Origin: Candidatus Zixiibacteriota bacterium
GTDB lineage: Bacteria > Zixibacteria > MSB-5A5 > GN15 > FEB-12
Length of the DNA: 64,000 nucleotides
Direction of reading: 5' to 3'
Assembly (NCBI GenBank): GCA_040752815.1
Contig: JBFMGC010000002.1
Span: 35,490-99,489 of the forward strand
The notes below the pieces were generated by a model, which was not told the DNA's origin, searched no databases, and saw nothing but the letters and a program-made list of their open reading frames with translations. The translations under genes were made by a program, and so were the position numbers. This document shows, one piece after another, positions 10,844 to 64,000 of this stretch (within the stretch, counting starts at the first letter, position 1; each line of letters opens with the position of its first letter).

Positions 10844-10846
10844 GCG

Positions 10847-12292
10847 CTACCTCAGGCCGAACTTGGCTAATTTGCGGTACAGAGTTCGTTCCCCAATTCC
10901 CAATCGCCGCGCCGTTTCTTTGCGGTTCCCGCCGGTTTGCTGCAACACTTGCTGAATCAAAGCCTCCTCCATCTCTTCCATCGTAGTGTTCGCGTCAAGT
11001 GAATCAGGCCCCATAGGCTCGGCGCTCCCGACCGGCTGCTCGCCCGGCAGATTGGCGGTGATCAAATTCCGAAGCAGCCTGATCTCATTGCCGAGTGACA
11101 GTATCGCCCTGTAAATCAGTTCCTGCCCGGCCTCCTCGGCAGTGCGGCCGGTGGATACAGGCAGGTGCTGCGCCGCAGCGTGCTGTTCTGCGAGAAACTT
11201 CTCGACATCGTCGGTCTCCACCAGACCGGCCGGCTTGAGTGCGGCCATGCGCGACGCAAAATTGCGCAACTGGCGCACGTTGCCGGGCCAATCGTACTTC
11301 ATGAGTCGTTCCAGCGCACCGCCCGAATAATCGAGCCCCTTCTGATCGCGCCAGAAGTGCTGCAGCAGCGGCTGGATATCGCCGCGTCGTTCTAGCAGCG
11401 GCGGCACCACCAGCTTAACCGCCGAAATCCGAAAATACAAATCCTCGCGGAAGCGGCGATCGGCGATGGCTTCAGTCAAATCACGATTCGTGGCCGCGAC
11501 CACCCGCACGTTGGCGCGCTCCGGCACCGACGAACCGACCGGGTAAAACGTGCCGTCTTCGAGCACGCGCAGCAGTTTCACCTGCATGTCCGGCTTGGTT
11601 TCGCCGATTTCGTCGAGGAAGATGGTCCCGCCTTCGGCTTTGCGGAAAAGTCCATCGCGCTTGCCGACCGAGCCGGTGAAAGCTCCCTTCTCGTGGCCAA
11701 ACAGCTCCGACTCGAGCAGCCCCTCGGAGATTGCGCCGCAGTTGATGGTCACAAACGGTCCTTTTGACCGTGACGATGATTGATGCACCGCCCTGGCGAC
11801 CAGTTCTTTTCCGGAACCGGACGGTCCGACAATCAGCACCGATACATCTGTCGGTGCAATCCTGTCGATCATCCCCGCCAGCGCCCTGAGCGCGCGCGAT
11901 CGGCCGATAATCCCGTACTTCTCCAGCAGTTTCTTGTCCGAGATGATCTGCGAGATGCGCTTGGCGATACCGTCAGTGCCAAGATCGGAGGGCATGGCGC
12001 CGTCGAAAAACGGCTCGACCTCGTGGGGCGACGTGTCGCTCTCGACCAGTTTCCATATATCAGTCAGACCGTTCGGGCGGCGGATCTTGATCGCCACCGC
12101 TTGGTTGACATCGTGACGATTCAGATCGACCAGCACCAGGCTGATTGTCCGCTCGCGCACGAGCTGGTAAACCTGCGCCATAGTCGTTACCGGCGTACCG
12201 ATAGACGCCCAACTGATCCCTGTCGCGGGGCGCTGTTTTTCATCGGTCAGGATAACAACATCTGAAATCATATCTCTGCGTTTGTCTCCCAA
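10847..12292 (-). CDS. sigma-54-dependent transcriptional activator (NtrC family) with receiver-like N-terminus
   Basis: AAA+ sigma-54 interaction domain (GPSGSGKELVARAVH, ESELFGHEKGAFTG, GTIFLDEIG) and a C-terminal Fis-type HTH (NRKETARRLGIGERTLYRKL). Confidence 0.9.
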   Translation of the reverse strand: MGDKRRDMISDVVILTDEKQRPATGISWASIGTPVTTMAQVYQLVRERTISLVLVDLNRHDVNQAVAIKIRRPNGLTDIWKLVESDTSPHEVEPFFDGAMPSDLGTDGIAKRISQIISDKKLLEKYGIIGRSRALRALAGMIDRIAPTDVSVLIVGPSGSGKELVARAVHQSSSRSKGPFVTINCGAISEGLLESELFGHEKGAFTGSVGKRDGLFRKAEGGTIFLDEIGETKPDMQVKLLRVLEDGTFYPVGSSVPERANVRVVAATNRDLTEAIADRRFREDLYFRISAVKLVVPPLLERRGDIQPLLQHFWRDQKGLDYSGGALERLMKYDWPGNVRQLRNFASRMAALKPAGLVETDDVEKFLAEQHAAAQHLPVSTGRTAEEAGQELIYRAILSLGNEIRLLRNLITANLPGEQPVGSAEPMGPDSLDANTTMEEMEEALIQQVLQQTGGNRKETARRLGIGERTLYRKLAKFGLR

Positions 12293-12309
12293 TCGCTATA
12301 CAGACCGAC

Positions 12310-46497: not shown

Positions 46498-47508
46498 TCA
46501 AGCGGCTGGAATCTTCCTGGTTCGCCAGCGGTTGTGCTGCCACGGCCACTGGTCTGGGTACGCCCGGATAAACTCTTCGAGCGCCTGCGTGCACTTCAAC
46601 GTCATGTTGTAAACATCGGCCTCGAAGTCACCGCTCGGTTTGATTTCAACCGGCGGTTGAATAATGAGCCGGTAACGATTATCGGGGGTCCTCACGCAGG
46701 CCATCGGTACGAACGCCGCCCCGGTTCGAAGCCCGAGCACACTCTGGCCCACCGGCGTGTACGACCACCGCCCGAACGCGGGGACAAACTGGCCGCGCAC
46801 CCGGTGAGAATCGGTGTCAATCAAAACACCCAGCGCTCTTCCCTGCCTGAGCCATCCGAGTATGATCTTGGGCGACTCGGTGGTGGCGATATTAACCAGT
46901 CCCACCGCCTCGCGATTGGCGCTCAAGAGGCGATCCAGCCGCGGATCGTACAGCTCGCGTCCTATGACCGCGACTTCGTAGCCGAGGCTCGCGATATAGG
47001 CTGCCAGCAGTTCAAAGTTGCCGATATGCCCGGTTACCCCGATCACACCCTTGCCGCGGCGATAGGCGATGTCGAAATACTCCAGCCCCTCGACCTGCAC
47101 CAAAGCTCTGAGCTCGGTCCCAAAGTGCCTCCTAAAACGGAGCACGTCGGCCATGTTCCTGCCGCTGTTGACAAAGAAATCCCTGCCGATCTGCAGCTTC
47201 TGCCGGTGTGTCAATTGTCCACCGTAGACCAGTGTGAGGTGTCGTACCGCCCGGTGTTGATCTCGCGGGGCCAGCCCCCACGCGGCCAGTCCAAGCCATC
47301 CGCCGAGGGTGATCGCGCTCCGTCTCGGCAGGCGATTCAACAGACGGGACAACAGCCTGACAAGAAAATAGACGGCCGTGCGTTTTGTGGACTTCAGGAC
47401 ATTCACTTCTGAAGATAGTGTAGGCAACTTGTTGGGGAGAGGCAAGCAGCCGGGCCTAAGCCGTTGGGGACCGTTGCCGCAACCGCAAGGGTCGCTGACT
47501 GCAGCCAC
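46498..47508 (-). CDS. lipid A biosynthesis (Kdo2-lipid IVA) acyltransferase family, LpxL/HtrB-like
   Basis: GKGVIGVTGHIGNFEL (the H-x4-D/E-type acyltransferase block), the N-terminal membrane segment and PDQWPWQHNRWR at the C-terminus are typical of the family. The true start is probably downstream of the track start. Confidence 0.8.
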   Translation of the reverse strand: MAAVSDPCGCGNGPQRLRPGCLPLPNKLPTLSSEVNVLKSTKRTAVYFLVRLLSRLLNRLPRRSAITLGGWLGLAAWGLAPRDQHRAVRHLTLVYGGQLTHRQKLQIGRDFFVNSGRNMADVLRFRRHFGTELRALVQVEGLEYFDIAYRRGKGVIGVTGHIGNFELLAAYIASLGYEVAVIGRELYDPRLDRLLSANREAVGLVNIATTESPKIILGWLRQGRALGVLIDTDSHRVRGQFVPAFGRWSYTPVGQSVLGLRTGAAFVPMACVRTPDNRYRLIIQPPVEIKPSGDFEADVYNMTLKCTQALEEFIRAYPDQWPWQHNRWRTRKIPAA

Positions 47509-47517
47509 AGCCGGAGA

Positions 47518-48738
47518 TCAGTGTCGCGGCGGCGGAACGGTCCGGCCGGTGTCGGGCGGGGTTGATTCGATAATCAAAGTGTCCTCGACGTTCTGAAACC
47601 GCCGATAAGCGTCCTCTTTGTCCGACGCAAACTTGCCGGGGCGGACAACCAAGGTTAGATCTACTTCGTTGCGCAGCAAAGACAACGTGGCACCTCCGCG
47701 GTCCAGTCCCACTAGCAGAAACTCGACCAACTGCCGATGATTCCGCGGCCGCTTGCCGTCGACCGCGCGGATAATGTCCCCCTCGCGTAATCCGCAGGCG
47801 TACCCCAGACGGGTGGTGTCGATTTTGTTCACCGTCAGCCGATTATTGTCACCGATACTTACGGCGAATCCAAGCTGCCCTTTGATCGGAATACCCTCGA
47901 CACTCCCCTGGCCGTCCCCCATCGATCCCTCGGCGGAGCTCGCAGGCGCCCGCGTGGCTTCGACCAGAGCTGAAAGCGGTGACTCGTCGAGCAGCCACTG
48001 AACCAGCGGATGGTCGAAGACCAGCACCCACTGCGTGAGCAGGTATTTCTCGAATATTTCGCGCCCGAGACTCTGACTCCTCCAGAACTCCGACTGGTAC
48101 GCTTCGAATGTGGAATCAAGCCCGATGATCGTCTGCGATGTCACCAGCGCGAGCAGCATGGCAAGGTTGTCGCGGCGGTATGGGCCCGGCTGCATGAGCG
48201 GATGGGCCGCCATCGAGCGATACAACGGGTCGTCCGCCTTCTCCGCCTGGGCGAGCATCCGGTGCGCCAGGTGGTATATAAGGTTGAACTCTTGAACAGC
48301 CCCCTGCGGTGCGGCAATTGCCATCTCACCGCGCCGCATCCCGCCGACCGGAATTACGAACGGCTCGGAGCCGCCGAACGACGGGTAATATCGCAGAACG
48401 TAAAGGTCGAAACGATCCTCCACCCAATCGAGTCCCGAGAACTGGGTCAGGAGCCACAGGATGCTGTCCCCCTTGACTTCCCAGAACCAGGCGAGCGCCG
48501 AATCGTTTTCCCGCACCCAACGAAGATCCTGCAAGACCGAGTGGGTCTTATAGAATTCGGGGTAGATTTCAGACTGAAACATGAACGACCGGTTGTTGAA
48601 CCGGACTTCCGGAACCGGCAGATCATATTGCACCTGACGCAGTCGCGCAGCGGCGGTATCTTTGGCCGCCTCTTGTGCGACTACCGACGACACGAGGGTC
48701 ATCACGAGGAGGATGGACACTCGGAAGACCATATCCAT
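47518..48738 (-). CDS. secreted PDZ-domain protein
   Basis: Signal peptide MDMVFRVSILLVMTLVSSVVAQ. C-terminal PDZ-like GLREGDIIRAVDGKRPRNHRQLVEFL. The N-terminal 300 aa are unassigned. Confidence 0.55.
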   Translation of the reverse strand: MDMVFRVSILLVMTLVSSVVAQEAAKDTAAARLRQVQYDLPVPEVRFNNRSFMFQSEIYPEFYKTHSVLQDLRWVRENDSALAWFWEVKGDSILWLLTQFSGLDWVEDRFDLYVLRYYPSFGGSEPFVIPVGGMRRGEMAIAAPQGAVQEFNLIYHLAHRMLAQAEKADDPLYRSMAAHPLMQPGPYRRDNLAMLLALVTSQTIIGLDSTFEAYQSEFWRSQSLGREIFEKYLLTQWVLVFDHPLVQWLLDESPLSALVEATRAPASSAEGSMGDGQGSVEGIPIKGQLGFAVSIGDNNRLTVNKIDTTRLGYACGLREGDIIRAVDGKRPRNHRQLVEFLLVGLDRGGATLSLLRNEVDLTLVVRPGKFASDKEDAYRRFQNVEDTLIIESTPPDTGRTVPPPRH

Positions 48739-48798
48739 TGTAATAAAGACGGCCCGGCGACCGATCGCAAGGATTTAGCGTGGGTGATTTGGCGGATG

Positions 48799-48914
48799 GC
48801 TGGTGGGCGAGGACATCCACCAGCCACGGCACGTGGGTATGATCTGTTGGGTCAGGTCTAGAGCACGACCCGGCCCGCGAAGCGGCCAGGGTCGGGCGGT
48901 GACCTGACGCCGTC
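48799..48914. repeat. direct-repeat copy 1 (family C) downstream of membrane-protein gene 49047-49952
   Basis: GCTGGTGGgcgaggacatCCACCAGC ... gagcacgacccggcccgcgaagcggccagggtcgggcggtgacctgacgccgtc. Roughly four-fifths identical by eye to 50033-50225. Confidence 0.55.
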
Positions 48915-48933
48915 AACTTCATAAGCATTGCGA

Positions 48934-48996
48934 GCGTCAGTTCACACCCCTTTTGCCTCGCTCAACGGTCAAGGCAAAAGGGGCAAGAACTGACGC
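48934..48996. repeat. 63-nt extended hairpin (10-bp outer + 12-bp inner stem)
   Basis: GCGTCAGTTC-aca-CCCCTTTTGCCT-(13-nt loop)-AGGCAAAAGGGG-caa-GAACTGACGC. Confidence 0.55.
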
Positions 48997-49046
48997 AACC
49001 CATTATGCTGGAGAGGCGGTTAAAAAGCGGATCCGCCCTTCTTGTG

Positions 49047-49952
49047 CTACGTATTCACAACTGACCCGGGCACCGCCGCCGCCTGCGGCGGCTCGACCAG
49101 TCGAAAATAAAACTGCACATACAGGGCGTTAAAGAACGCCCCAACATACCCGCCGATTACCAGCGCCACCGGCAGACCGATAAACAGCGCCAGAAACAAT
49201 ATCGCCACGAGATTCTCAGTCACCCCGAGCACGAGCAGGTTAATCGGTAGATAGAAGATCGCCGCCAGGATAACAACCACGATAGCAATGCCTATTCCCA
49301 GCCCGATCATGATCAGGCTCATGATAAAGCAGTTGGCCTTGTTCCGCATGAGCAGATTCCAGCCCTCGACAATGGCGTCGGCGATGGCGTTGTCGCGCGC
49401 CACCATCGCTACCTCCGCAAGGCTGAAAGTGTGGTATATACCGAAGAATACAACCAGACCGGCTGGAATAGTGAGCAGAAGACTGAACGGGGTCAGTACA
49501 ATCGCCAGGACTACGATCGCCGCGATCAGCGCGATAGCTGCGAAAAACTCCACCATGGTTATGCCGAAGAACCGCCAGAAGAAATCTGTGCCGCGTGAGA
49601 ACGACGTGCCAAAACTGTACTGTCCGCCCCGCGTGATCTTGTTGACCGCGTCGATAATAGCCGGCTGGGCGATCAAGTAGCAGATGAAAAATAGAAGCCC
49701 CAGCGCCACGACCCACAGGAGCAGCGCGCTGAGGACCGCGAATTCCGGCGGGACCAGGTCGGTGGGCAGGCCCATCTGGTCAAACCAGTCGTAGGCAAAA
49801 CTCATGTCAAGCTCGTCCGAGTCCACCTTCTCGGTCCAGTTGAAATTGAATGCATCGCCTCCGCCCGCAAACAGCCCGAAGATCCAAAGCGTCTTGAAGC
49901 GCCAGGCCATCTCAAATGACTTCTGTATGATTGCGCCGAAATCAATGCCCAT
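49047..49952 (-). CDS. polytopic membrane protein of unknown function
   Basis: At least six hydrophobic helices. The N-terminus IIQKSFEMAWRFKTLWIFGLF resembles DUF975-like or GP-PDE membrane-domain-like families, but only loosely. Confidence 0.5.
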   Translation of the reverse strand: MGIDFGAIIQKSFEMAWRFKTLWIFGLFAGGGDAFNFNWTEKVDSDELDMSFAYDWFDQMGLPTDLVPPEFAVLSALLLWVVALGLLFFICYLIAQPAIIDAVNKITRGGQYSFGTSFSRGTDFFWRFFGITMVEFFAAIALIAAIVVLAIVLTPFSLLLTIPAGLVVFFGIYHTFSLAEVAMVARDNAIADAIVEGWNLLMRNKANCFIMSLIMIGLGIGIAIVVVILAAIFYLPINLLVLGVTENLVAILFLALFIGLPVALVIGGYVGAFFNALYVQFYFRLVEPPQAAAVPGSVVNT

Positions 49953-50032
49953 ATCAGCCTCCAGGGTAGATTATGTCGGCCGAATATACGGAGTTGTTAA
50001 ATATGCTCGCAACGGCGATGTATGGCGTGCGA

Positions 50033-50225
50033 GCTGGTGGACGGGGATATCCACTAGCCAGGGATGGCAGAACCGCCGACCGCGTGCTGACGCGCGCGGT
50101 CCATGGGTTCTTCCCTACAAGAGTCGGTAGCTGCAAGAGTCCGTGGCTGTGAACTGTTGCGTCGGGTCCTGAGCACGACCTGGCTCGCGAACCGGTCGGG
50201 GGTCGGGCGATGACGTGACGCCGTC
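50033..50225. repeat. direct-repeat copy 2 (family C) upstream of membrane-protein gene, with ~80-nt insertion
   Basis: GCTGGTGGacggggatatCCACTAGC ... gagcacgacctggctcgcgaaccggtcgggggtcgggcgatgacgtgacgccgtc. The insertion (about 50071-50150) carries a ccctacaaga motif also seen at 16141. Confidence 0.55.
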
Positions 50226-50393
50226 TTGTGCTGTCGGGCGACCCGGCTCGACAGCTGTGGCCGGCGCGTCTCCCGGTGCGCCGGCTAGCCGTACACAGTT
50301 CATCCGTGACACGTTTTGAGCTTGCCTCCGGGACAGTATAACGTTACTCATTGCCGAAGTGTGACACTTACGGATGTTGTGAGAGCGCCGATC

Positions 50394-50780
50394 ATGCACT
50401 CGGTCAGTAGGTTGATTCCGGTCATTTCCATCCTGACTTTCCTCGCCATAATCACCGGCTGCGGCCGGGGTCAGCAGGCCGAGAATCGCCTGTCTGACAC
50501 CGCCGCTTCGGCCCAACCAGCGCCGCAGGACAGTCTCGTGATCGATCTGGTCGGTATCGACTCAACCACAGTACTTGACCTGCTTTTGGCAAAGCACCGG
50601 GTCGATTACCGTGTCACCGCCGGCGGGGCGTTCGTGGTGGCGATCGGCGACGCCAAAAACAGCGCCGAATACTTCTGGCTCTATTCGGTCAATGACACGA
50701 TGGCACGGGTTGCCTGCGACCAGTATCTCACGCGGACCAACGACCGCGTACGCTGGCATTACCGCAAGGTCGGGATATGA
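50394..50780 (+). CDS. DUF4430-like lipoprotein
   Basis: Lipobox MHSVSRLIPVISILTFLAIITGC-G. The C-terminus FVVAIGDAKNSAEYFWLYSVNDTMARVACDQY resembles the DUF4430 (transcobalamin-like) pattern. Confidence 0.55.
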   Translation: MHSVSRLIPVISILTFLAIITGCGRGQQAENRLSDTAASAQPAPQDSLVIDLVGIDSTTVLDLLLAKHRVDYRVTAGGAFVVAIGDAKNSAEYFWLYSVNDTMARVACDQYLTRTNDRVRWHYRKVGI

Positions 50781-50881
50781 TCCCGGCTGCGACCGGGTAT
50801 TATCTATATGTGAATTCACTTTAATGTTGCGCGTACAACGGAGTATCTCTTAATTCTGCCAGCACCTTAAAGGAGGTCATT

Positions 50882-50953
50882 ATGGCTAAGGGAAAAGACA
50901 AACCGAAAAAAGAGACTAAGAAGCCCAAGAAGAGCAAGAAGAAGGGCTGCTAG
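50882..50953 (+). CDS. 23-aa lysine-rich mini-protein MAKGKDKPKKETKKPKKSKKKGC
   Basis: Too short for the ORF track. AGGAGG (50871-50876) lies 5 nt before the ATG, an A/T-rich region sits upstream, and a stem-loop plus T-run follows 45 nt downstream. Confidence 0.45.
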   Translation: MAKGKDKPKKETKKPKKSKKKGC

Positions 50954-50997
50954 TCTTGCCGAAGACGTAAGCGGCGGCACTCCCTGTCGTCACTGAC

Positions 50998-51032
50998 ACG
51001 GCCCGGAAGCCGCAAGCCGCCGGGCCGTTTTC
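50998..51032 (+). terminator. Rho-independent terminator-like hairpin after the mini-ORF
   Basis: ACGGCCCGG-(13-nt loop)-CCGGGCCGT followed by TTTTC. Confidence 0.5.
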
Positions 51033-51085
51033 ATGTCTATTTCCGGCTGGCGTTTTGCCGGGGTCGGCATATATTTCCGACTACC

Positions 51086-51880
51086 ATGAATAACACACTC
51101 GAGCGTATTGAACGGGGCGAGTTTTTTCTGATCGCCGGCCCGTGCGCGATCGAATCGGAACAGCTCTGTCTTGATGTCGCCGCTCGTGTCAATGATCTCG
51201 CCCGCCGGCACGATCTGCCCTATATCTTCAAGTCATCGTACAAGAAAGCCAACCGGTCGGCGGCGGGAACCTACGCGGGTCCGGGACTCGAAGCCGGTCT
51301 GATCGTGCTGAAGAAAGTCAAGGCTGAACTCGGTATCCCGGTGCTGACCGACATCCACGAAACGCCGGAAATCGGTCCAGTTGCCGAAGTCGCCGACGTC
51401 CTCCAGATACCCGCGTTCCTATGCCGTCAGACCGATCTGGTCGTGCAGGCCGCCGCGACTGGGCGCTGGATCAACATCAAGAAGGGCCAGTTCCTCGCAC
51501 CCGATGACATGACCCGAATCGCCGCCAAGGCCGGCTCCGGGAAGATTATGCTTACCGAGCGCGGTTCAACATTCGGATACCACAATCTCGTGATCGATTT
51601 CCGCTCGCTTGTAATCATGAAGAAAACCGGCTGCCGGGTTGTTTTCGACGCCACCCACTCCTTGCAGTTGCCCGGCGGCGGCGACGGTGTCTCGCTGGGG
51701 CAGCCGGAGTTTGTCATTCCGATGGCCCGGGCCGCGATGGCGGTGGGAATCGACGGGCTCTTTGTCGAAACGCACCCCGAACCGGCTAAGGCCTTATGTG
51801 ACGCCGGTGTCATGCTTCCAATTGACCGGATGGAGCAGTTGCTCGATTCAGTACTGCGTATCAGGGACGCCCTCAAATAG
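51086..51880 (+). CDS. kdsA: 3-deoxy-8-phosphooctulonate synthase
   Basis: FLIAGPCAIES, YIFKSSYKKANRS, PVLTDIHE and FDATHSLQLPGG are KdsA signatures. Confidence 0.95.
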   Translation: MNNTLERIERGEFFLIAGPCAIESEQLCLDVAARVNDLARRHDLPYIFKSSYKKANRSAAGTYAGPGLEAGLIVLKKVKAELGIPVLTDIHETPEIGPVAEVADVLQIPAFLCRQTDLVVQAAATGRWINIKKGQFLAPDDMTRIAAKAGSGKIMLTERGSTFGYHNLVIDFRSLVIMKKTGCRVVFDATHSLQLPGGGDGVSLGQPEFVIPMARAAMAVGIDGLFVETHPEPAKALCDAGVMLPIDRMEQLLDSVLRIRDALK

Positions 51881-51887
51881 GCTGGTT

Positions 51888-52418
51888 ATGAATAAACTCA
51901 CGCGTACCGAATTCGTCGAGCGTCTGAAATTGATCAGGCTGCTGGCTATTGATGTCGACGGCGTGCTAACTGACGATTCGATCTACTTCGGCCCGGACGG
52001 ATTCGAGCTGAAGAGGTTTAACATCTCCGACGGCTTCTACATGGTGCTGGCCATGCGCCACGGTCTCGAACTAGCGATCGTTTCCGGCCGCCACTCAGCC
52101 GCAACCGATACCCGCATGAAAGATCTCGGCATAAAACATGTGCTGCAGGCCAGAAAAGATAAAGTCGAGATGATCGCCCCGCTCCTGGCTGGCCTGCGCA
52201 TCGGTTTTGAGCAGGTGGCATTCATGGGGAACGAGATTCTCGATATCAAACTCGCTCGCCGGGTGGCGCTGCCGATTGCTGTAGCTGACTCGGCCAAAGG
52301 CCTGCTCGACGAAGTAGCCTATGTCACCGAACGAAAGGGCGGGCACGGCGCGGTGCGCGAAGTATTGGAATGCTACTTTGAGGCTGTTGGAGTCAATCCG
52401 AAAGAGCTGGTGATCTGA
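51888..52418 (+). CDS. kdsC: 3-deoxy-D-manno-octulosonate 8-phosphate phosphatase (HAD family)
   Basis: IRLLAIDVDGVLTDD (the DxD HAD motif), VSGRHS and FMGNEILDI. Start is set at ATG 51888, because the track ORF's 5' extension overlaps kdsA out of frame. Confidence 0.9.
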   Translation: MNKLTRTEFVERLKLIRLLAIDVDGVLTDDSIYFGPDGFELKRFNISDGFYMVLAMRHGLELAIVSGRHSAATDTRMKDLGIKHVLQARKDKVEMIAPLLAGLRIGFEQVAFMGNEILDIKLARRVALPIAVADSAKGLLDEVAYVTERKGGHGAVREVLECYFEAVGVNPKELVI

Positions 52419-53386
52419 TGGACCTGATCAGGTATGCGCAGGAGGTGATCCGCAGCGAGGCGGGAGCGGTTGCGGCCATGGCAGATCGCCTGGGACCGAG
52501 CTTCCAGCAGGCGGTGGAGGCAATACTTGAGTGCAGGGGACGAGTCATTGTCGCCGGGCTGGGCAAATCGGGCCTGATCGGCCGCAAGATTGTCGCCACT
52601 TTCAACTCGACTGGTATCTCGTCGTTCTTTCTGCACCCGGCCGATGCCCTCCACGGCGACCTTGGCCTGATCCGCGCCGAGGATATCCTGATGATCATCT
52701 CCAAGTCAGGCCGTCAGGAGGAACTCGAGATGATAATCGCGGTGGCTCGGCGACTCGGTGTGACGATCATGGTGCTCGGCGGCAATACCGAATCGGATCT
52801 GTACCAGAAGGCCGACATCGCCCTGGACTGCTCGGTCGCCAGCGAGGCCTGTCCGAATAACCTGGTGCCGACGTCATCATCGACCGCCACACTGGTTATG
52901 GGCGACGCCCTTGCGCTCGCACTTCTCAAGGCCCGCCATTTCACCAAAGAGGATTTCGCCGAGCTGCACCCGGCCGGGTTTCTTGGGCGCAGGCTGCTTA
53001 AGCGAGTTTTGGAATATCATCACACGGGTGACTCGATCCCGCTCGTCCGCCCCGACGCCACATTTTCCGAGATGATGGTGATTATGAGCGAAAAGCGGCT
53101 GGGCTGTGTGGTCACGACGGATTCAGATCACAGGGTGACTGGGATTTTCTGTGACGGAGACCTGCGCCGCCTGCTGGAAAGGGTCGGCGACAAAGCCATA
53201 TTCGGTTTGAGAGCGTCGGATGTCATTGTGAAGAACCCCAAGACGATTCGTCAGGATGCCATTCTCGACGCCGCCCTTGCGCTCATGGAGCAGAAAGAGA
53301 TCACCCAGCTCCCGACAGTCGACGACCATGGCCGCTTGACGGGCGTGATACATTTGCATGACATCTTGAAATCGAAGCTGGTGTGA
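52418..53386 (+). CDS. kdsD: arabinose-5-phosphate isomerase (SIS + tandem CBS)
   Basis: GRVIVAGLGKSGLIGRKIVATFNSTG and SKSGRQEE form the SIS domain. Two C-terminal CBS domains follow. The start overlaps the kdsC stop (ATGA type). Confidence 0.95.
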   Translation: MDLIRYAQEVIRSEAGAVAAMADRLGPSFQQAVEAILECRGRVIVAGLGKSGLIGRKIVATFNSTGISSFFLHPADALHGDLGLIRAEDILMIISKSGRQEELEMIIAVARRLGVTIMVLGGNTESDLYQKADIALDCSVASEACPNNLVPTSSSTATLVMGDALALALLKARHFTKEDFAELHPAGFLGRRLLKRVLEYHHTGDSIPLVRPDATFSEMMVIMSEKRLGCVVTTDSDHRVTGIFCDGDLRRLLERVGDKAIFGLRASDVIVKNPKTIRQDAILDAALALMEQKEITQLPTVDDHGRLTGVIHLHDILKSKLV

Positions 53387-56889: not shown

Positions 56890-57417
56890 CTAATCCATGA
56901 AGAGATAGCGGCGCCAGCGATGATCGTTGGCGCTAAGATGGCGCTGAATGAAGGTAATATGCGAGGGGCGCGTGGGTTTCTTGATCAATTGCAGCCCGGC
57001 TTGCTCAGGGGTGCGGTCGCCCTTGAGATTATTGCATTTGATGCAGGCGCACACCATGTTTTCCCAGGTATCGGTCCCGTGAAGCTTGCGCGGGATGACA
57101 TGATCTATAGTCATCGCCCCGCGTCCGGTGCCGCAATACTGGCAACGGTGGCCGTCGCGGACGATTATGTTTTTACGGGTGAGCATGATATAACGAAAGG
57201 GCACCCGGCGGTACTCGGCCAGCCTGACCACCGACGGCAGCGCGAAACTGCGCGAGACTGAGTGTACTTTGAGACCGTCGGCGGTTTCCACCATCTCAGC
57301 TTTTCCCTGGAATAGTAACACAATCGCCCGTCGCGCCGAACAGACCGTCAGCGGTTCATAGTTCTGATTGAGCATCAGAACATTGCGGTTTATTACCGAG
57401 CCGTTACTACCAGCCAT
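56890..57417 (-). CDS. HNH endonuclease family protein
   Basis: RDGHRCQYCG...TIDHVIPRKLHG..TWENMVCACIKCNNLKG is an HNH/zinc-ribbon motif. The N-terminus LNQNYEPLTV is typical of this stand-alone family. Start is set at ATG 57417. Confidence 0.85.
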   Translation of the reverse strand: MAGSNGSVINRNVLMLNQNYEPLTVCSARRAIVLLFQGKAEMVETADGLKVHSVSRSFALPSVVRLAEYRRVPFRYIMLTRKNIIVRDGHRCQYCGTGRGAMTIDHVIPRKLHGTDTWENMVCACIKCNNLKGDRTPEQAGLQLIKKPTRPSHITFIQRHLSANDHRWRRYLFMD

Positions 57418-57753
57418 CTTGCTACCCCTTAAACAGTTAACGGAAATGCCAGGTTGAGGAGATAGGTTCTGGCTGGGCCGGCCACCCGACATCGCCGTCA
57501 ACAGACAGGGGCCAAACACCTGTTATGGGGGTGAAAAGTAGCGCAAAACCGCCGGAAGTCAACAGGATTCTGGTGACGGGCGGCGCCCCCCGGTGGGAAG
57601 CTCGGCAAAGAAGTCCGCGAGGCTTCGCGTCAGTACGTTTCCCTCTTTACGCTCCCGAAGCGCATCGCAAGACGGTGCGATCCCTCTCGCATCGCGTAAT
57701 ACGAGTCGTCAACGATGGATGGAGCCCCGCTCCCGTCGGTTCACGGCGTCAGC

Positions 57754-58470
57754 CTACATGCAATACGGCAGAGGTCGCCCGGTCAGGAAGAGATAGTCTA
57801 TAAGGATGGTAATATCGCCGATCGAGATATCGCTGTCGGCGCCCTGCTGAGGATTGGAACCGCCCGACAGATTCATGTCGGCCTCGCCGGGACACCAGAG
57901 AGCTCTCCTGCTCACGAAGAGATGATCGATCAGCGTGGTCGCGTCGCCGATAGTCGGTTCGTCGCCGTCAAGGCCGTTTACATCGCCCACTCTTCCCGTG
58001 CAGCAGACCACGGACGTAGCCACAATCAACGGGGAGTTGGATAGTTGAGATTTGTTCCCGACCTCGTCACACGTGCGCAGTGCGAAATAGTAGCCGAGTC
58101 CCGGAGTAAGACCCAGGACCAGCACCGAGTCCTTCTGGCCTGCCGGGGAAGGGATAGGGACCGCAGCGATCATGGTAGCAGCCTGCCATTCGGCCTCGGT
58201 ATTCAGTGGGCCCAGGCTAAGCGGTTGAAAGCGAATATCGTAGCCAGTCGCCTTGCCGACATAGCCGTCGTCGCCCGGAGCCGTCCACTTGAGCTTGATC
58301 CCGCCGGTGGCGTCGGGACCGGCGACCGCCTGGTCCTCACTAAGTGCCAAGGTGGGCAGAAGCAGAATGGCCAGAATTGGGCGAAGCGTTTTCAGGAAAG
58401 CGAAAACGCGCGCTCGAACATGGTATAGCCTAACGCAATAACTCATTTCCACACAAAGCGCTTGGGCCAC
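57754..58470 (-). CDS. secreted FN3-like + dockerin/EF-hand-like repeat protein
   Basis: Signal-like LRPILAILLLPTLALS. FN3-like LKWTAPGDDGYVGKATGYDIRF...YYFALRTCDEVGN. The C-terminus CCTGRVGDVNGLDGDEPTIGDATTLIDHLF...DSDISIGDITILIDYLF contains two dockerin-like repeats. Confidence 0.55.
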   Translation of the reverse strand: MAQALCVEMSYCVRLYHVRARVFAFLKTLRPILAILLLPTLALSEDQAVAGPDATGGIKLKWTAPGDDGYVGKATGYDIRFQPLSLGPLNTEAEWQAATMIAAVPIPSPAGQKDSVLVLGLTPGLGYYFALRTCDEVGNKSQLSNSPLIVATSVVCCTGRVGDVNGLDGDEPTIGDATTLIDHLFVSRRALWCPGEADMNLSGGSNPQQGADSDISIGDITILIDYLFLTGRPLPYCM

Positions 58471-58699: not shown

Positions 58700-60640
58700 T
58701 CAAACCACGTAGCCGCCGTCGAGCGGCCAGTGTGCGAAGTCGTTCTTGCCGATACGGGTAAGGTCGCGGGCAAGCAGTTGCGAGTCCCTAGTCACACGCT
58801 CGCGGGTCTTGCGCTCGTGAATGCGCTGAAGGTGGAAATCGCGTGTGGCCTCGTCGAACGGCATCCGCTGAGGATTGACAAACCTGACTGCACCGTCGCA
58901 ATCGCGTGCGGTGAGTAGTTGATTACGGTTGTAAGTGCTTGGCGAGAACGGAATATCGAGAAGGCCGGTTTGAAATGCGAGAATCGCCCCACGAGCCAAA
59001 GAACCGCGACCGAGCGATTCAATCTGCGCCATAACCGCATCCACCTGTTTACGGAGGCGGGTCATTTCGGCCTCGATCCGGGCCTGATCAACTTTGACAT
59101 GGGCCGCTTGCTGAACTCCCTTACGAGTCAACTGCAGGGCCTCGCCGTTGTCTTCCTTCGACGGAATCTTGTAGGCTTCGACCGGGGACTTGACCATAAA
59201 CCGCGAGGCTTTCGCCAGTGCTCCCGTGGTCGAGGAATTAACAATTACCTCGCGAGCCTTGGCCGGATCGGTAGGGAAGGCTGCCATATAGTGATGGTAG
59301 ACCGTCGAGACGGTACAGTGAGGGAAACCATACCTGCTCAAATACTGCTGTGTGGCGGTTTCGAGCACCCTGAGGCTGGCGATGTCCTGAATCCGGTTGC
59401 CCTGCTCGGCCAGACCGACACTAAGGCACTGGACGCCTGTTCGGGCGGAGAGCACTGACTGGACTATGTTCACACAGATTGGAATGGTCGGTTCGATAAG
59501 GCTGGTCGTCAGCGGTCCGAAAAACTCCCGGTTGATCACGATCCCGTACTGGCGGAAGTACAACCCGGTCAGCTTGTCGACGTACTTCCAGTACCTCAGG
59601 TTGTCGACCGGCGAGAGCTTCTTGTCGTAGGGGAACAGATAACAGATAAACCCGCCCTCGAGTGAGGTCGCCCCACCGGCCAGCGCAATCTCATAGACTA
59701 AGCGGTGATCAGGCGAGCCCGCGCGGATTTGAAACGGGGTTTCGATTGCTTGCACGATCTGCTCCACTCCCGGCACGCCGTGCACCGGCACCGGGTACCC
59801 GTTGAGAAACGACCGCTTCCCTTTTTCTGTTCGGCGGACTCCCTCCTCCGCCTGGGCGTACATATTCTTGCGGCTGGCGGCGTCGAGCTGAATCGACGAA
59901 ACATCGAGCCCGAACCCCCGCAGGTACCGGAGAAGGTCGATCTGGTCGCTGACATGGGCCACACCGGTGCGAGGCTGCAGTAGAGGACCGCCGTCGTTTT
60001 GCATTCGGTCTACGATCACGTTGTGCAGGTTTTTGGAAGGAACGGTGTGGTTCTTCCTGACATCGGTCGTCAGCACGGCGCTGCCGGTTTTCCATGACTC
60101 CAGCACTTCGGTACGGGTGGCAGCAAAGACCTCGTCGGACATCGGGTCATCGCTGACAGTTTCGAGATTGGCCAGTATGGGAAAGTCGTCCGCGACACGA
60201 TCCGCTACCGGCTGCTGCTTCATGCCCCGGCGATGAAGGTCGGCGGTTAGATTCTCCATGATGACTTCAAGCGTCACCGGCTTGGGAGCGACAAAATCGA
60301 AACCCATTTGGAGATACTTCTTTTTGGTGATCTCGGCATCGTCGCTTACGGACAAATTGCCGCCCAGATACCACAGCCGAGGTGTAGAGTCGGCCAGTTT
60401 GTACGCCGCGAGCTTGCGCGCGAAACCGTGGAGATAGAGATCAGCGTGGCCGTTGTTGCAGGAGATCATGATAATGTCGTATCCAGGCGCCTGATGAAAA
60501 AAGTCGTCGAGCTGATTCAAAATGCCGAGATTGCGGGCGACAAAACCGGCCTCGCGAAAAGCGAGAGTCAGGAGGGCCATGCCGACCGCGTGGATATCGT
60601 CGCCGACACTGCCAATGAGAACGCGATATGCTTCTTTCAT
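58700..60640 (-). CDS. fused cobalamin-binding (MutS/GlmS-like) + catalytic (MutE/GlmE-like) glutamate-mutase-type protein
   Basis: The N-terminus VLIGSVGDDIHAVGMALLTLAFREAGF carries the DxHxxG B12 ligand motif. The remaining ~480 aa share blocks with GlmE (QPRTGVA, LLRYL, SFLNGYPVPVHG, INREFFGPLT, LDIPFSPS). Start is set at ATG 60640; the track start 60718 would overlap the racemase gene. Confidence 0.85.
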   Translation of the reverse strand: MKEAYRVLIGSVGDDIHAVGMALLTLAFREAGFVARNLGILNQLDDFFHQAPGYDIIMISCNNGHADLYLHGFARKLAAYKLADSTPRLWYLGGNLSVSDDAEITKKKYLQMGFDFVAPKPVTLEVIMENLTADLHRRGMKQQPVADRVADDFPILANLETVSDDPMSDEVFAATRTEVLESWKTGSAVLTTDVRKNHTVPSKNLHNVIVDRMQNDGGPLLQPRTGVAHVSDQIDLLRYLRGFGLDVSSIQLDAASRKNMYAQAEEGVRRTEKGKRSFLNGYPVPVHGVPGVEQIVQAIETPFQIRAGSPDHRLVYEIALAGGATSLEGGFICYLFPYDKKLSPVDNLRYWKYVDKLTGLYFRQYGIVINREFFGPLTTSLIEPTIPICVNIVQSVLSARTGVQCLSVGLAEQGNRIQDIASLRVLETATQQYLSRYGFPHCTVSTVYHHYMAAFPTDPAKAREVIVNSSTTGALAKASRFMVKSPVEAYKIPSKEDNGEALQLTRKGVQQAAHVKVDQARIEAEMTRLRKQVDAVMAQIESLGRGSLARGAILAFQTGLLDIPFSPSTYNRNQLLTARDCDGAVRFVNPQRMPFDEATRDFHLQRIHERKTRERVTRDSQLLARDLTRIGKNDFAHWPLDGGYVV

Positions 60641-60672
60641 GATAGGTATGTCGTGTAATCGAGGAATCCGCT

Positions 60673-61416
60673 TTACCGGCCCGGGGTCAGACGGCTTGGC
60701 GCGTCGGGCTGGAGGCATTTCCGAATCGCGGTTTCAAGCAGGATGTCAATTGTATCCACCAGCGGTACCGGGAATTCTTCTGGCTTGAATACCAGAGGGA
60801 GTTCGGAGCACCCGGCAACAATCGCCTCGGCGCCGGACTCAATCAGAATCTGTGCGCCCTGGCGCAGCCGCTCTTTGGGCTGGCCGGTAACATTACCGGC
60901 TTTGATTCCCCAGGGGGCATAAATCGGTTCGGTGAAGTAGAATTCCTGGTCCTTATCGCGTAGCACCAGCGCCTCGATATCGCGCTGGAGAAGTTGCTTT
61001 TGAAACAGGCCGAGCTTGATTGCTCCTGTCGATGCGATCACGCCGACTCTTTTCAGACCCAGATCGCGGCAGCGCTCAGCGGTGTGGGCGATGCCGTCGA
61101 GAATAGTCGCTTGCGAGTGCTCCTGCAGTTGGGGAATGAAGTAGTGCGACGTCATGCAGGCCAGGACGATGTAGTCGGCGCCCATCCGGTTGAGGATTTC
61201 AACCGAACGCCGAAGCTCAGGCAGCGGGCTCGGCTGGCCGTAGAGAATGCCGGCGGTGCGGTCCGGGATTTGCGTGTTGTTGTGGACAAACGTCTCGACA
61301 TATTCCTGATCAGTCTTGGCCGGGGTCAGCTCGATCAGACGCTTGAAAAAGTAGGCCGCCGCCACTGAACCCATGCCGCCGATAATGCCCAGCCGGGGAC
61401 GATTTTGCTTGACCAA
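60673..61416 (-). CDS. aspartate/glutamate racemase family protein
   Basis: LGIIGGMGSVAAAYFF plus the two catalytic-Cys blocks YIVLACMTSHYF and AIVAGCSELPLV. Confidence 0.85.
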   Translation of the reverse strand: MVKQNRPRLGIIGGMGSVAAAYFFKRLIELTPAKTDQEYVETFVHNNTQIPDRTAGILYGQPSPLPELRRSVEILNRMGADYIVLACMTSHYFIPQLQEHSQATILDGIAHTAERCRDLGLKRVGVIASTGAIKLGLFQKQLLQRDIEALVLRDKDQEFYFTEPIYAPWGIKAGNVTGQPKERLRQGAQILIESGAEAIVAGCSELPLVFKPEEFPVPLVDTIDILLETAIRKCLQPDAPSRLTPGR

Positions 61417-61539: not shown

Positions 61540-62313
61540 CTATTCATGGCGATCCCCGCTGTCGGCAGGCCGATGATTTGCGGTCCGGAAAGCCTCCAGA
61601 ACCGTCGCAGCAATCGCCCGGTAGCCGTCGGGGTTCAGGTCGACCTTGGTCCGGGCCAGGTCATGCCGAAGATACCCCGCCGTGTCGGCCACGGCCGAGC
61701 GCCAGTCAGCTACTGTGATTCGGTGCTTGTGGGCGTACTCGGCCAGCCATTGGCTGTACGTCGCGACCGTGTCCCGCACGATATAATCCTCGTGTTCGTC
61801 CACCTCGAAATCATCTCTGGGAGGGATACAGGTGGTCAGGACAGGCTCGATACCGTAACATCGCGCCATCTCGGCCAGTGAGATGACGTAGTCGAGAATC
61901 TCCCGGGGCCGGCTATTGGGGCGAAAGTTGTACGAGCTGACCTCGATTACCACATACTCCGGCCCAAGTTCGATAACATCGGGCCGGAACCGAAGCAGGA
62001 ACCCGGCCACGCGCTGTCCGGTTACACCCCGGTTGATGGCCTCAAAATCCGGGAAGTATTCCGCGAGCGGCCACTCGGCCATGACCTGGGATCCGAAGAA
62101 AACGATCCGGCCGGGAACGATGGTATCCGACTTCAGGGCCGCGTCGGCAGACTCGTAGGTACTCCGCCCGGAGAATTCGTCGACCACGTACAGGTATTTA
62201 TCCAACCAGTAGTTGATATTCGTACGGTACTGCCAGGCCTTGTAGCCGACATAGATTATCGTCAGGTTGCCGATCAGCGAAACCAGCAGCACCATTCGCC
62301 ATTTGCCTGTCAT
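61540..62313 (-). CDS. membrane-anchored SGNH/GDSL-like hydrolase
   Basis: N-terminal TM, then IVFFGSQVM (a block I-like Ser), GVTGQ (block II/III-like) and a late DxxH-like DLNPDGY region. The assignment is tentative. Confidence 0.45.
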   Translation of the reverse strand: MTGKWRMVLLVSLIGNLTIIYVGYKAWQYRTNINYWLDKYLYVVDEFSGRSTYESADAALKSDTIVPGRIVFFGSQVMAEWPLAEYFPDFEAINRGVTGQRVAGFLLRFRPDVIELGPEYVVIEVSSYNFRPNSRPREILDYVISLAEMARCYGIEPVLTTCIPPRDDFEVDEHEDYIVRDTVATYSQWLAEYAHKHRITVADWRSAVADTAGYLRHDLARTKVDLNPDGYRAIAATVLEAFRTANHRPADSGDRHE

Positions 62314-63362
62314 GAAGGTCTCTCCCCAGCGTTAGATTCCCGGCCACGAACCAGCTCCTGGAGAAAGCCGCAGCCAAGGCCGAGATGAATGGTTAGGAAT
62401 ATCGGCGGAGCCAGCACCAGGTGAACAATTCCGTGGCGCAGTGCAATCGCCATCGATGACACCAGTACCGCTGCGACATAAAGCCCGTACAGTACGGCGA
62501 ACACATACCAGAACGCTGACAACCACAGCGCCACCAACGGCAACACCACGAGGCCGAGGGCGAAAAGTGGCGGAATGAGCGTGCCGATTCCGAGAGTCGC
62601 CGGGTGTTTGCGCGCGAGGCGCATTCGCCCGGTGCCGTAGCGGGCCATCTGTCGAAACAGGCCGGCGATTGAGTTTCGGGGATAATAGTAGACTGCCAGC
62701 TTCAGCGAGGTAAACGCTTTGAATCCTGCCTGGGCCACTCGGTAATTGAACTCGTAATCCTCGCTGGCGTCGAAAGTCTCGTCGAAATAGCCGACTTTTT
62801 CGAACACCTCGCGCCGATACGATGCTCCCGCGCTGGCCGGATTTACGAACATGTCCTTGTCGGTGTAGATTGTCGAATCAAGCCCGTGGCCAAGAGGCGA
62901 CCGCCGCACCAGCGCCACCGCGGTTTGAAATGTCGCGTTCTCCGGGGTTTCGAGAAACTGCGGTCGGCTGAGCACGGCGACATTGTGCTCGGCCATCAAA
63001 CGCGCCGTACTCTTCAGGAGCTGATCGTTGTCGATATAGGTGTGGCCGTCGATGAAGGTGATTATGTCACCCGTCGCGGCGCGGGCGCCGAGGTTTCGCG
63101 CCGGCGACGACCACCGCTTCGGATTGTGCAGATACCTGACCCGTGAGTCGCTCATCGAAAGTCGCTGCACGATCTCTGCCGTGTCGTCTATCGAGTCACC
63201 GACTCCCACAATGATCTCCAGCTTGTCTCGCGGGTAGTCCTGGTCCAGAAGATACTGGATGGTTCGGGCGATATACTTCGCCTCGTTGCGGATAGGCAGA
63301 ACAACACTGATTTTGGGCCAGTTTTCCAAGATTAAGTCCTTATACATGATGGGTAAGGACAA
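62310..63362 (-). CDS. family 2 glycosyltransferase with C-terminal transmembrane helices
   Basis: ISVVLPIRNEAKYIARTIQYLLDQDYP..LEIIVGVGDSIDDT and FIDGHT (the DxD region) form a GT-A fold. Three or four C-terminal TM helices follow. Confidence 0.85.
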   Translation of the reverse strand: MSLPIMYKDLILENWPKISVVLPIRNEAKYIARTIQYLLDQDYPRDKLEIIVGVGDSIDDTAEIVQRLSMSDSRVRYLHNPKRWSSPARNLGARAATGDIITFIDGHTYIDNDQLLKSTARLMAEHNVAVLSRPQFLETPENATFQTAVALVRRSPLGHGLDSTIYTDKDMFVNPASAGASYRREVFEKVGYFDETFDASEDYEFNYRVAQAGFKAFTSLKLAVYYYPRNSIAGLFRQMARYGTGRMRLARKHPATLGIGTLIPPLFALGLVVLPLVALWLSAFWYVFAVLYGLYVAAVLVSSMAIALRHGIVHLVLAPPIFLTIHLGLGCGFLQELVRGRESNAGERPS

Positions 63363-63697: not shown

Positions 63698-64000
63698 ATG
63701 CCTGGTGGAAAGAAGTGTCCGATCGTGCTATCCGCAAAACTGAGTCCGTTGGTCATTGGCAATAAGATCGCCCCGCTGCCGATAGTGCAGGGCGGAATGG
63801 GCGTGGGCATCTCATTATCCGGTCTGGCTTCGGCTGTGGCAAACATGGGCGGTGTAGGCGTGATCGCCGCGGCCGGTATCGGCATGTACGAGAGCGACTT
63901 TTATACCAACTATCTTCAGGCCAACACTCGCGCGCTGGCAAGTGAAATCCGCAAAGCCAAACTGCTGACCGGCGGCATTCTCGGACTGAACATCATGGTG
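63698..64000 (+). CDS. nitronate monooxygenase / enoyl-ACP reductase II (FabK-like) family, 3' end off window
   Basis: Absent from the track because there is no stop in the window. My translation from ATG 63698 gives MPGGKKCPIVLSAKLSPLVIGNKIAPLPIVQGGMGVGISLSGLASAVANMGGVGVIAAAG..., with the PIVQGGMG motif typical of the NPD/NMO family. Confidence 0.7.
   Translation, partial: MPGGKKCPIVLSAKLSPLVIGNKIAPLPIVQGGMGVGISLSGLASAVANMGGVGVIAAAGIGMYESDFYTNYLQANTRALASEIRKAKLLTGGILGLNIMV

Follow-up and report, generated by a model that had tools for sequence, protein, structure and literature searches.

Glutamate mutase is a textbook B12 radical enzyme that has been studied almost only in its two-subunit fermentative form. 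A 64,000-nucleotide (nt) stretch of the Candidatus Zixiibacteriota contig JBFMGC010000002.1 (positions 35,490 to 99,489, referred to here as the window) encodes both parts of such an enzyme on a single chain directly behind an aspartate-type racemase gene, and the question raised by this locus is what a pair of this kind would make. Our analysis suggests that the fused mutase converts L-glutamate to (2S,3S)-3-methylaspartate, that the racemase converts this to its D-erythro epimer and that the product is used to decorate an envelope polysaccharide. This reading draws on sequence comparison and on a structural model of the mutase, and we put its probability at roughly one half. The two genes and their parts are arranged as follows.

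58700..60640, minus strand: fused S-E glutamate (methylaspartate) mutase, 646 amino acids (aa), MEW5794949.1 (profile and PDB matches, AlphaFold2 model, Foldseek)
60218..60628, minus strand: MutS/GlmS-like cobalamin-binding domain, aa 5-141 (MutS profiles below cut-off, GlmS match in the PDB, fold)
60581-60598, minus strand: DxHxxG motif, D15-H17-G20 (invariant in 29 homologues)
60143..60217, minus strand: inter-domain linker, aa 142-166, with weaker model confidence (pLDDT blocks of 74-77; between the GlmS and GlmE matches)
58742..60142, minus strand: GlmE/MutE catalytic TIM-barrel domain, aa 167-633 (TIGR01503, alignment to 1cb7_B/6h9e_B, residue mapping)
60641..60672, minus strand: racemase-mutase spacer of 32 nt, without a terminator-like site
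60673..61416, minus strand: Asp-type two-cysteine amino-acid racemase, 247 aa, identical to MEW5794950.1 (Asp_Glu_race, TIGR00035)

The mutase gene lies in an open reading frame (ORF; 58700..60718, minus strand) with an open length of 672 aa. Translation from ATG 60640 gives 646 residues, the same length as in more than 100 homologues and in the public annotation, where the sequence is entered as "methylaspartate mutase subunit E" of a Candidatus Zixiibacteriota metagenome-assembled genome (MAG) on a 132,621-bp contig. An earlier sequence-only reading of this DNA had proposed this start and a single polypeptide of two domains; homologue length and the public entry agree with it, and every peptide that it quoted is present in the translation. 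Its description of a full GlmE/MutE-like catalytic domain is likewise borne out. Residues 203-633 score 414 bits with Pfam Met_asp_mut_E (PF06368; cut-off 26.6), the protein passes the NCBIfam MutE equivalog TIGR01503 (406.5 bits against a cut-off of 390.1) and a sequence search of the PDB matches residues 167-633 to C. cochlearium GlmE (E=1e-102, 38% identity). The N-terminal part is best described as a divergent S-like domain and, by score, not as a MutS equivalog: over residues 5-141 the models NF002612 and TIGR01501 reach 85.9 and 66.1 bits, below their cut-offs of 110 and 135.8, and Pfam B12-binding (PF02310) reaches 27.7 bits over residues 6-117, below its gathering score of 32.1. A phmmer search of the PDB matches residues 5-135 to GlmS (E=5e-10, 31% identity), and the cobalamin domain that had been recognized from its DxHxxG motif is supported by this match, by its fold and by the invariance of D15, H17 and G20.

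An AlphaFold2 model of the mutase, built from an alignment of 29 homologues, has a predicted local distance difference test score (pLDDT) of 90.2 and a predicted template modelling score (pTM) of 0.91. Because of this pTM the S and E domains are predicted to dock confidently, the only weaker stretch of the model being the linker at residues 142-166. Foldseek superimposes the model on GlmE (6h9e_B/1cb7_B) with a TMt of 0.92-0.93 and a root mean square deviation (rmsd) of 2.1-2.3 Å and on GlmS (1i9c_A) with a TMt of 0.85 and an rmsd of 2.2 Å, while aminomutases and methylmalonyl-CoA mutases reach TM values of only 0.33-0.48. The residues that we take, from the 1CCW and 1I9C structures, to be the substrate and adenosyl contacts of GlmE are R66, R100, N123, R149, E171, Y177, Y181, K326 and E330. 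All nine are kept in the window mutase, as R224, R257, N280, R306, E328, Y334, Y338, K484 and E488; together with D15-x-H17-x-x-G20 they are invariant in the alignment of 29 fused homologues, and the nine-contact signature is present in 28 of 29 fused cluster representatives. Judged by sequence and model, the protein looks like a catalytically competent single-chain adenosylcobalamin-dependent glutamate mutase.

Two other accounts of the protein were rejected. A frameshift or assembly artefact as the source of the fusion is ruled out by more than 100 independent assemblies that share the 646-residue architecture, and assignment of the E domain to a different mutase or aminomutase family is ruled out by the passed MutE cut-off, the nine kept contacts and the best fold match, which is GlmE. 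As a separate observation, the window's clade differs from GlmE at four positions flanking the catalytic E171/Y177 loop, H150A, G174F, S176C and N178L (A307, F331, C333 and L335 in the window mutase). H150 and N178 are retained by GlmE and by the other fused clades; the change is lineage-specific, and the four substitutions are found in polysaccharide-linked members of the clade and in those linked to nonribosomal peptide synthetases (NRPSs) alike.

The closest characterized system is clostridial GlmS/GlmE (MutS/MutE; C. cochlearium, C. tetanomorphum; 1CCW, 1CB7, 1I9C, 6H9E), with which the window mutase shares both domains, the fold and the catalytic residues, including the Arg claw R66/R100/R149, E171, Y177, Y181, K326 and E330 of GlmE and the His-on DxHxxG motif of GlmS. 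The clostridial enzyme is an E2S2 heterotetramer, whereas the window mutase is one polypeptide in the order S-linker-E. Chen and Marsh in 1997 reportedly engineered a GlmES fusion that was catalytically competent as a single-chain glutamate mutase; that artificial protein has the order E-linker-S, while the natural family to which the window mutase belongs has S-linker-E. Three natural E-S clusters also carry the full signature.

The earlier reading had set the natural S-E fusion against characterized mutases with separate S and E polypeptides; the fusion is less unusual than this suggests. More than 100 proteins of 642-653 residues from independent assemblies have the S-E architecture of the window mutase at 50-78% identity, and a scan of one genome per species revealed 79 S-E fusion loci. 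Their hosts include Zixibacteria, Ignavibacteria, Desulfobacterales, Syntrophorhabdus, Acidobacteriota and Cloacimonetes and, among cultured bacteria, Chitinophaga, Chryseolinea, Streptomyces, Kitasatospora, Actinosynnema, Chondromyces and Dictyobacter. A search with the E domain only against 1.84 billion cluster representatives returned 675 clusters. Of the listed representatives, 122 span the active site and were scored for the signature; all nine residues were found in 52 of these (28 S-E fusions, 21 unfused proteins and 3 E-S fusions), and in a neighbour-joining tree 28 of 29 S-E representatives fall in one clade. Single-chain S-E enzymes thus account for about half of the sequence diversity bearing the catalytic signature in this survey. 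The natural fusion is neither rare nor an artefact and has already been given automatic names by annotation pipelines; a literature search of incomplete coverage found no paper describing it.

Two further groups appeared among the same 122 representatives. Sixty-four unfused GlmE-like clusters lack the full signature (25-34% identity; among P0152-P0266); by sequence alignment they keep R100, N123, K326 and E330 and vary at R66, R149, E171 and Y177, and they may use other substrates. The three E-S fusions, P0157, P0180 and P0198, have the E domain first, with the full catalytic signature, followed by about 120-150 extra C-terminal residues that, from their length only, form a putative S domain.

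The second enzyme of the pair is the racemase. The earlier reading had placed it 32 nt upstream of the mutase on the same strand with both catalytic cysteines, and C87 and C203 are indeed present and align with C82 and C194 of 1JFL. The protein scores 109 bits with PF01177 (Asp_Glu_race; cut-off 31) and 177.8 bits with TIGR00035 (cut-off 93.1), and its nearest solved structure is the P. horikoshii Asp racemase (PhAspR; E=1e-48). R53 and K172 are the counterparts of PhAspR R48 and K164, which we take to bind the beta-carboxylate. In a set of 43 non-redundant mutase-linked racemases, C82, C194, R48 and K164 (PhAspR numbering) are kept in every member, while Asn83, which follows the first Cys, is replaced by M, V, I, L or F in 42 of the 43. 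The window racemase has M88 in place of the canonical Asn and so reads Cys-Met-Thr, not the Cys-Asn-Thr of characterized Asp racemases; the Asn is present in the PDB Asp racemases 1JFL, 3S7Z and 5B19. Homologues of the window racemase have a hydrophobic residue at this site down to about 40% identity, and Asn occurs only in more distant, canonical types.

The two enzymes are linked well beyond the window. Of the 79 species-level genomes with a fused mutase, 40 carry a homologue of the racemase in the flank and on the same strand, directly upstream in 20 and directly downstream in 9. We refer to the relatives' loci by L-numbers; their contexts were taken from Pfam tables of 13 loci and from tblastn of Pfam-labelled seeds onto all loci. 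The gap between racemase and mutase is 9 nt in L002, and in L088 the genes overlap by 4 nt. When the mutases and racemases of these loci are compared with the window pair, their identities rise and fall together (r=0.97, n=37), as they would if the two genes were inherited as one unit. A literature search of incomplete coverage for a mutase plus racemase pairing returned nothing relevant.

In the window the pair forms part of an operon transcribed in the order GT2, GDSL/SGNH, racemase, mutase and then, after 229 nt, a secreted fn3/dockerin-like protein. The remaining genes of this block and its borders are listed here.

62310..63362, minus strand: membrane family 2 glycosyltransferase (GT2), first gene of the operon (Glycos_transf_2, 92.9 bits; C-terminal hydrophobic segments, aa 254-331)
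61540..62313, minus strand: GDSL/SGNH hydrolase or acyltransferase with an N-terminal membrane anchor (Lipase_GDSL_2, 47.5 bits; hydrophobic segment, aa 5-23)
57754..58470, minus strand: secreted fn3/dockerin-like protein, 229 nt after the mutase (fn3, 21.5 bits, below threshold)
63698..64000, plus strand: divergent NMO/FabK-like gene, partial at the window end, the upstream boundary of the operon and outside the module (translation)
56890-57519, minus strand: HNH endonuclease, 209 aa, between the operon and a CcmF-like gene (HNH region)

The start of the GDSL gene overlaps the stop of the GT2 gene by 4 nt. Pfam matches agree with the neighbours that had been named from sequence (an SGNH-like hydrolase, a membrane GT2 and a secreted dockerin-like protein), the last of them through a sub-threshold fn3 match. 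The stretch upstream of the NMO gene is known by analogy with a syntenic locus only, L089 (ENA ERZ25039554 contig_19703, 1.63 Mb; 8088-12698), in which an NMO gene occupies the same position as in the window.

The relatives show what kind of gene set this block belongs to. In clade A, which is the window's own clade (at least 55% mutase identity), the racemase, when present, always lies immediately upstream of the mutase, and 12 of 14 loci with both genes are in polysaccharide gene sets. The recurring core of clade A consists of Wzx, a CapK_C adenylate-forming ligase, racemase, mutase and, on the opposite strand, an AsnB-like amidotransferase, the CapK_C proteins being directly upstream of the racemase-mutase pair; around it are dTDP-rhamnose genes, GT2/GT4, Wzy, GDSL paralogues, PGA_cap, ATP-grasp and exosortase EpsH/EpsI genes. 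An unbiased Pfam census of 121 neighbours found Asp_Glu_race 12 times, Wzx 9, GDSL 9, GATase_7 8, RmlD-type 6 and GT2 6. L087, whose mutase is 74% identical, has the exact five-gene block of the window and, directly after it, EpsI/EpsH, Wzx, CapK_C and AsnB-like genes. The GT2-GDSL-racemase-mutase-fn3 block is kept as a unit in L001 and L087. GT2 orthologues, 55-75% identical, are found in L002, L006, L087 and L089, GDSL orthologues at the matching position in L001, L087 and L089, and fn3/dockerin-like orthologues after the block in L001, L002, L006, L087 and L089, with Dockerin_1 annotated in L002. The small secreted fn3 and dockerin-like protein thus travels with the GT2-GDSL-racemase(-mutase) block across genomes. 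A Wzx/Wzy/exosortase polysaccharide context is present in L002, L003, L006-L010, L084 and L087, whereas the window itself has GT2 and GDSL only.

Other branches of the family have different surroundings. Clade B (Bacteroidota, 42-48% identity) is arranged as NRPS, TauD, AsnB, racemase, mutase, NRPS. In clade C (35-41% identity) the order is NRPS, mutase, AsnB, racemase, NRPS in Acidobacteriota and MFS, ATP-grasp, PhyH, mutase, TauD, HMGL, ATP-grasp in Streptomyces and relatives. Within clade A, L004:10001-19925 (Ca. Aminicenantes, CP070627.1) has no racemase; its fused mutase is followed by three radical-SAM genes of the B12-binding type, by a PanD-like aspartate decarboxylase and by genes for an NRPS C-A protein and a large polyketide synthase (PKS). 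This arrangement is reminiscent of beta-amino-acid starter-unit pathways, and since its NRPS/PKS and PanD-like context matches known uses of 3-methylaspartate it supports the proposed identity of the mutase product. Because the relatives' loci are polysaccharide, NRPS or ATP-grasp clusters, the view of the fused subfamily as a biosynthetic building-block supplier, not a fermentative enzyme, is supported by gene content. The earlier reading had favoured envelope or secondary metabolism over fermentation, and the polysaccharide loci of the window's clade and the NRPS and ATP-grasp clusters elsewhere point the same way.

Such a supply role has precedents. The GlmA/GlmB enzymes of friulimicin, VinH/VinI of vicenistatin (and SceL/SceM) and SanU/SanV of nikkomycin biosynthesis provide 3-methylaspartate for secondary metabolites (PMC9113097; PMC5785472; bioRxiv 10.1101/2025.11.12.688011). 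Like the window mutase as we read it, they make 3-methylaspartate as a building block; in contrast to it, they consist of separate subunits, deliver to an NRPS or PKS and have no dedicated racemase partner described, while the window mutase is fused, has a racemase partner and is proposed to serve a polysaccharide. The racemase has a counterpart as well. Microcystin contains D-erythro-beta-methylaspartate, the racemase of its cluster is McyF, and the cyanobacterial methylaspartate (MeAsp) is proposed to arise via McyI, not via glutamate mutase (PMC2885083). McyF and NdaG (microcystin and nodularin; PDB 5WXX) resemble the window racemase as stand-alone, Asp-type two-Cys racemases in a biosynthetic cluster, and McyF also lacks the canonical Asn after the first Cys, having Cys there. 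The similarity between McyF and the window racemase is weak (phmmer E=1.3e-17, 67 bits), and the destination of the McyF product is an NRPS.

We infer the biochemical function of the pair from sequence and propose the following pathway. The S-E enzyme would hold adenosylcobalamin in the base-off/His-on state through D15-x-H17-x-x-G20 and convert L-glutamate to (2S,3S)-3-methylaspartate by the GlmE radical mechanism, a step that is well supported by sequence and predicted fold. The adjacent two-thiol racemase would then invert C2 to give (2R,3S)-3-methylaspartate, that is, D-erythro-beta-methylaspartate, and probably takes Asp too. Finally, the D-amino acid would be joined to an envelope polysaccharide or exopolysaccharide (EPS) repeat unit. 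By analogy with the relatives, in which the gene of a CapK/PaaK-like adenylate-forming ligase directly precedes the pair, such a ligase is the likely attaching enzyme; in the window variant the pair would be co-transcribed with the membrane GT2 and the anchored SGNH protein. The mutase equilibrium favours glutamate, and in fermenters methylaspartase pulls the product away. In the proposed pathway an ATP-dependent downstream use of the product would exert this pull. A precedent for attachment by a ligase is VpsH of Vibrio cholerae, a CapK/PaaK-like protein that, by genetic evidence, is needed for the attachment of glycine to L-GulNAcA, the uronic acid in lipid-linked Vibrio polysaccharide (VPS) intermediates (PMC13463779). 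VpsH is encoded in a Wzx/Wzy EPS locus and is a homologue of adenylate-forming ligases, and the relatives' CapK_C proteins are putative counterparts of it. VpsH adds glycine, whereas the relatives' ligase would add (D-)methylaspartate, and the window has no CapK-like gene that we could find.

Several observations weigh against this pathway. In the whole 64 kb of the window tblastn found no CapK, Wzx, Wzy or AsnB-like gene, and the racemase-mutase pairs of L005 and L088 lie outside any polysaccharide context. A literature search, again of incomplete coverage, found no report of 3-methylaspartate in a polysaccharide or glycan. Any tie between the replacement of Asn83 in the racemases and the 3-methyl group is hypothetical, and the co-variation of mutase and racemase identities partly reflects organismal phylogeny. 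A further objection comes from L089, the closest syntenic locus with a long contig, which has the order NMO, GT2 (75%), GDSL (65%), racemase (72%), dockerin protein (65%), GDSL, Wzy. Between its racemase and dockerin genes the 1.9-kb mutase gene is cleanly missing, with no tblastn remnant, and it follows that the racemase can function without an adjacent mutase, perhaps on Asp. The case may be likened to that of microcystin variants, which carry either D-Asp or D-MeAsp.

L089 also speaks for an alternative in which the two genes are neighbours but work independently, the racemase providing the polysaccharide with D-Asp or a different acidic D-amino acid and the mutase separately providing L-threo-3-methylaspartate. 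The same view gains from the Asp-recognizing R48 and K164 equivalents kept in the racemase and from clade-A mutases that have no racemase and lie in NRPS loci (L012, L086) or beside genes for HAD, carrier protein and acyl-CoA dehydrogenase (L011, L085). It is harder to reconcile with an adjacency that recurs in three deeply diverged clades and two different biosynthetic contexts, with a shared non-Asn signature that is confined to this racemase subfamily and with the very tight gene spacing. We regard independence as unlikely, with a chance that still has to be reckoned with.

A catabolic or central-metabolic role, with the remaining genes elsewhere in the genome, would fit a mutase that bears the full catalytic signature of the fermentative enzyme, and our view is of the window, not of the whole MAG. 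The Pfam scan of the window covered 23 ORFs between 23320 and 63362, a part of the ORFs of that stretch, and found no MutL, methylaspartase, mesaconase or cobalamin genes among them. MutL, methylaspartase and mesaconase were also not found in the 13 Pfam-annotated neighbourhoods of relatives, in line with the earlier reading, which had seen neither MutL nor methylaspartase nearby, and the MutL and methylaspartase families are not among the Pfam families matched by at least 3 of the 121 neighbours, a census dominated by polysaccharide families. The clostridial operon has mutL between the two mutase parts and a methylaspartase gene, whereas in the window locus neither was seen and the context is biosynthetic; the locus is not a canonical clostridial mut/glm operon with separate mutS-mutL-mutE and methylaspartase. 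As the fused subfamily as a whole is found in biosynthetic clusters, we consider a catabolic role improbable.

The product might instead go into a small molecule that is secreted or lipid-linked and either peptide-like or acylated, with GT2 and GDSL as unrelated neighbours. Most fused mutases outside the window's sub-clade do serve NRPS, PKS or ATP-grasp clusters, and the L085/L011 context comprises genes for HAD, carrier protein and acyl-CoA dehydrogenase. Against this, neither tblastn nor the Pfam-scanned ORFs of the window revealed an NRPS, PKS, carrier protein or ATP-grasp gene, and the GT2-GDSL-racemase-mutase-fn3 unit is kept in L001 and L087 and, minus the mutase, in L089. We give this explanation little weight.

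A different substrate for the GlmE-like domain, in place of glutamate, is brought to mind by the four substitutions beside the catalytic residues in the window's clade and by the many unfused GlmE-like clusters with altered active sites, and is made very improbable by the retention of all nine checked substrate and adenosyl contacts and by the passed MutE equivalog cut-off. The weakest explanation, that the racemase is a cysteate racemase (CuyB) unrelated to methylaspartate, stems from NF052483, its best NCBIfam model, and we consider it highly improbable, as the score of 192.3 bits exceeds the cut-off of 190 by a 2-bit margin, the mutase-adjacent orthologues score 188.5, 157.8 and 104.6, all below it, no sulfonate-metabolism genes are nearby (in the Pfam-scanned window ORFs and the census of relatives' neighbours) and the linkage to the mutase is consistent; the match is regarded as a borderline, non-diagnostic profile effect.

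With decoration of an envelope polysaccharide by D-erythro-3-methylaspartate as the preferred reading, a more far-reaching and more doubtful proposal can be made, which we offer tentatively and would not expect to hold in full. Zixibacteria, Ignavibacteria and some Desulfobacterales may decorate an exosortase-associated exopolysaccharide with D-erythro-3-methylaspartate that is made on the spot by a single-chain glutamate mutase together with a specialized racemase and is amide-linked by a CapK/VpsH-like ligase, the B12 radical mutase being dedicated to cell-surface glycan tailoring. If true, no branched acidic D-amino acid would have been found in a polysaccharide before, glutamate mutase would gain a new physiological role, and EPS production would depend on cobalamin; should the link to the polysaccharide be borne out, so would the surface-polymer chemistry of these sediment and groundwater bacteria. 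The fusion itself was already annotated and is common; more noteworthy are the racemase signature, the possible B12-dependent decoration of a glycan and the biosynthetic wiring of the fused mutases, which belong to NRPS clusters in the cultured genera Chitinophaga and Streptomyces and to polysaccharide loci in anaerobes that are uncultured. The linked racemase subfamily with its Asn-to-hydrophobic change could serve as a genome-mining marker for products containing D-methylaspartate. Mechanistic studies would gain a simpler catalyst in a natural enzyme that consists of one chain and has no MutL partner, and such an enzyme could also find use in engineered mesaconate or methylaspartate pathways.

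Two cluster types outside clade A were noted in the course of the survey. A trio of true asparagine synthase (TIGR01536, 493 bits), racemase and fused mutase lies inside large NRPS clusters, often with TauD hydroxylases, in Bacteroidota (Chitinophaga, Chryseolinea and others; L017, L019-L024, L027-L031, L040) and in Acidobacteriota (L038-L047, L057, L078). Its hosts include the cultured type strains C. japonensis DSM 13484 and C. rupis DSM 21039, and its gene content predicts undescribed peptides with D-methylaspartate or methylasparagine. In L045, L046, L049, L058, L059 and L061 (Streptomyces, Kitasatospora, Trebonia) the fused mutase stands with MFS, an ATP-grasp L-amino-acid ligase, PhyH, TauD, an HMGL-like gene and a second ATP-grasp gene (order MFS, ATP-grasp, PhyH, mutase, TauD, HMGL-like, ATP-grasp), without NRPS or racemase; this looks like an uncharacterized ligase-made peptide pathway that would use methylaspartate.

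In the window no Rfam element was found, a cobalamin riboswitch included, and a promoter and terminator scan gave no signal above background. Downstream of the operon lie the HNH endonuclease, a CcmF-like protein and an arylamine N-acetyltransferase, followed further on by KpsF, KdsC, KdsA, an LpxL-like acyltransferase, an aminoacyl-tRNA synthetase and other housekeeping genes. The HNH endonuclease (56890-57519) matched IscB and Cas9 HNH models below their cut-offs (NF040563, 66 against 175 bits). The lipopolysaccharide (LPS) core gene set at 46498-53386, comprising the LpxL-like lipid A acyltransferase, KdsA (DAHP_synth_1), a KdsC-like phosphatase and KpsF (SIS+CBS), indicates a diderm envelope with Kdo.

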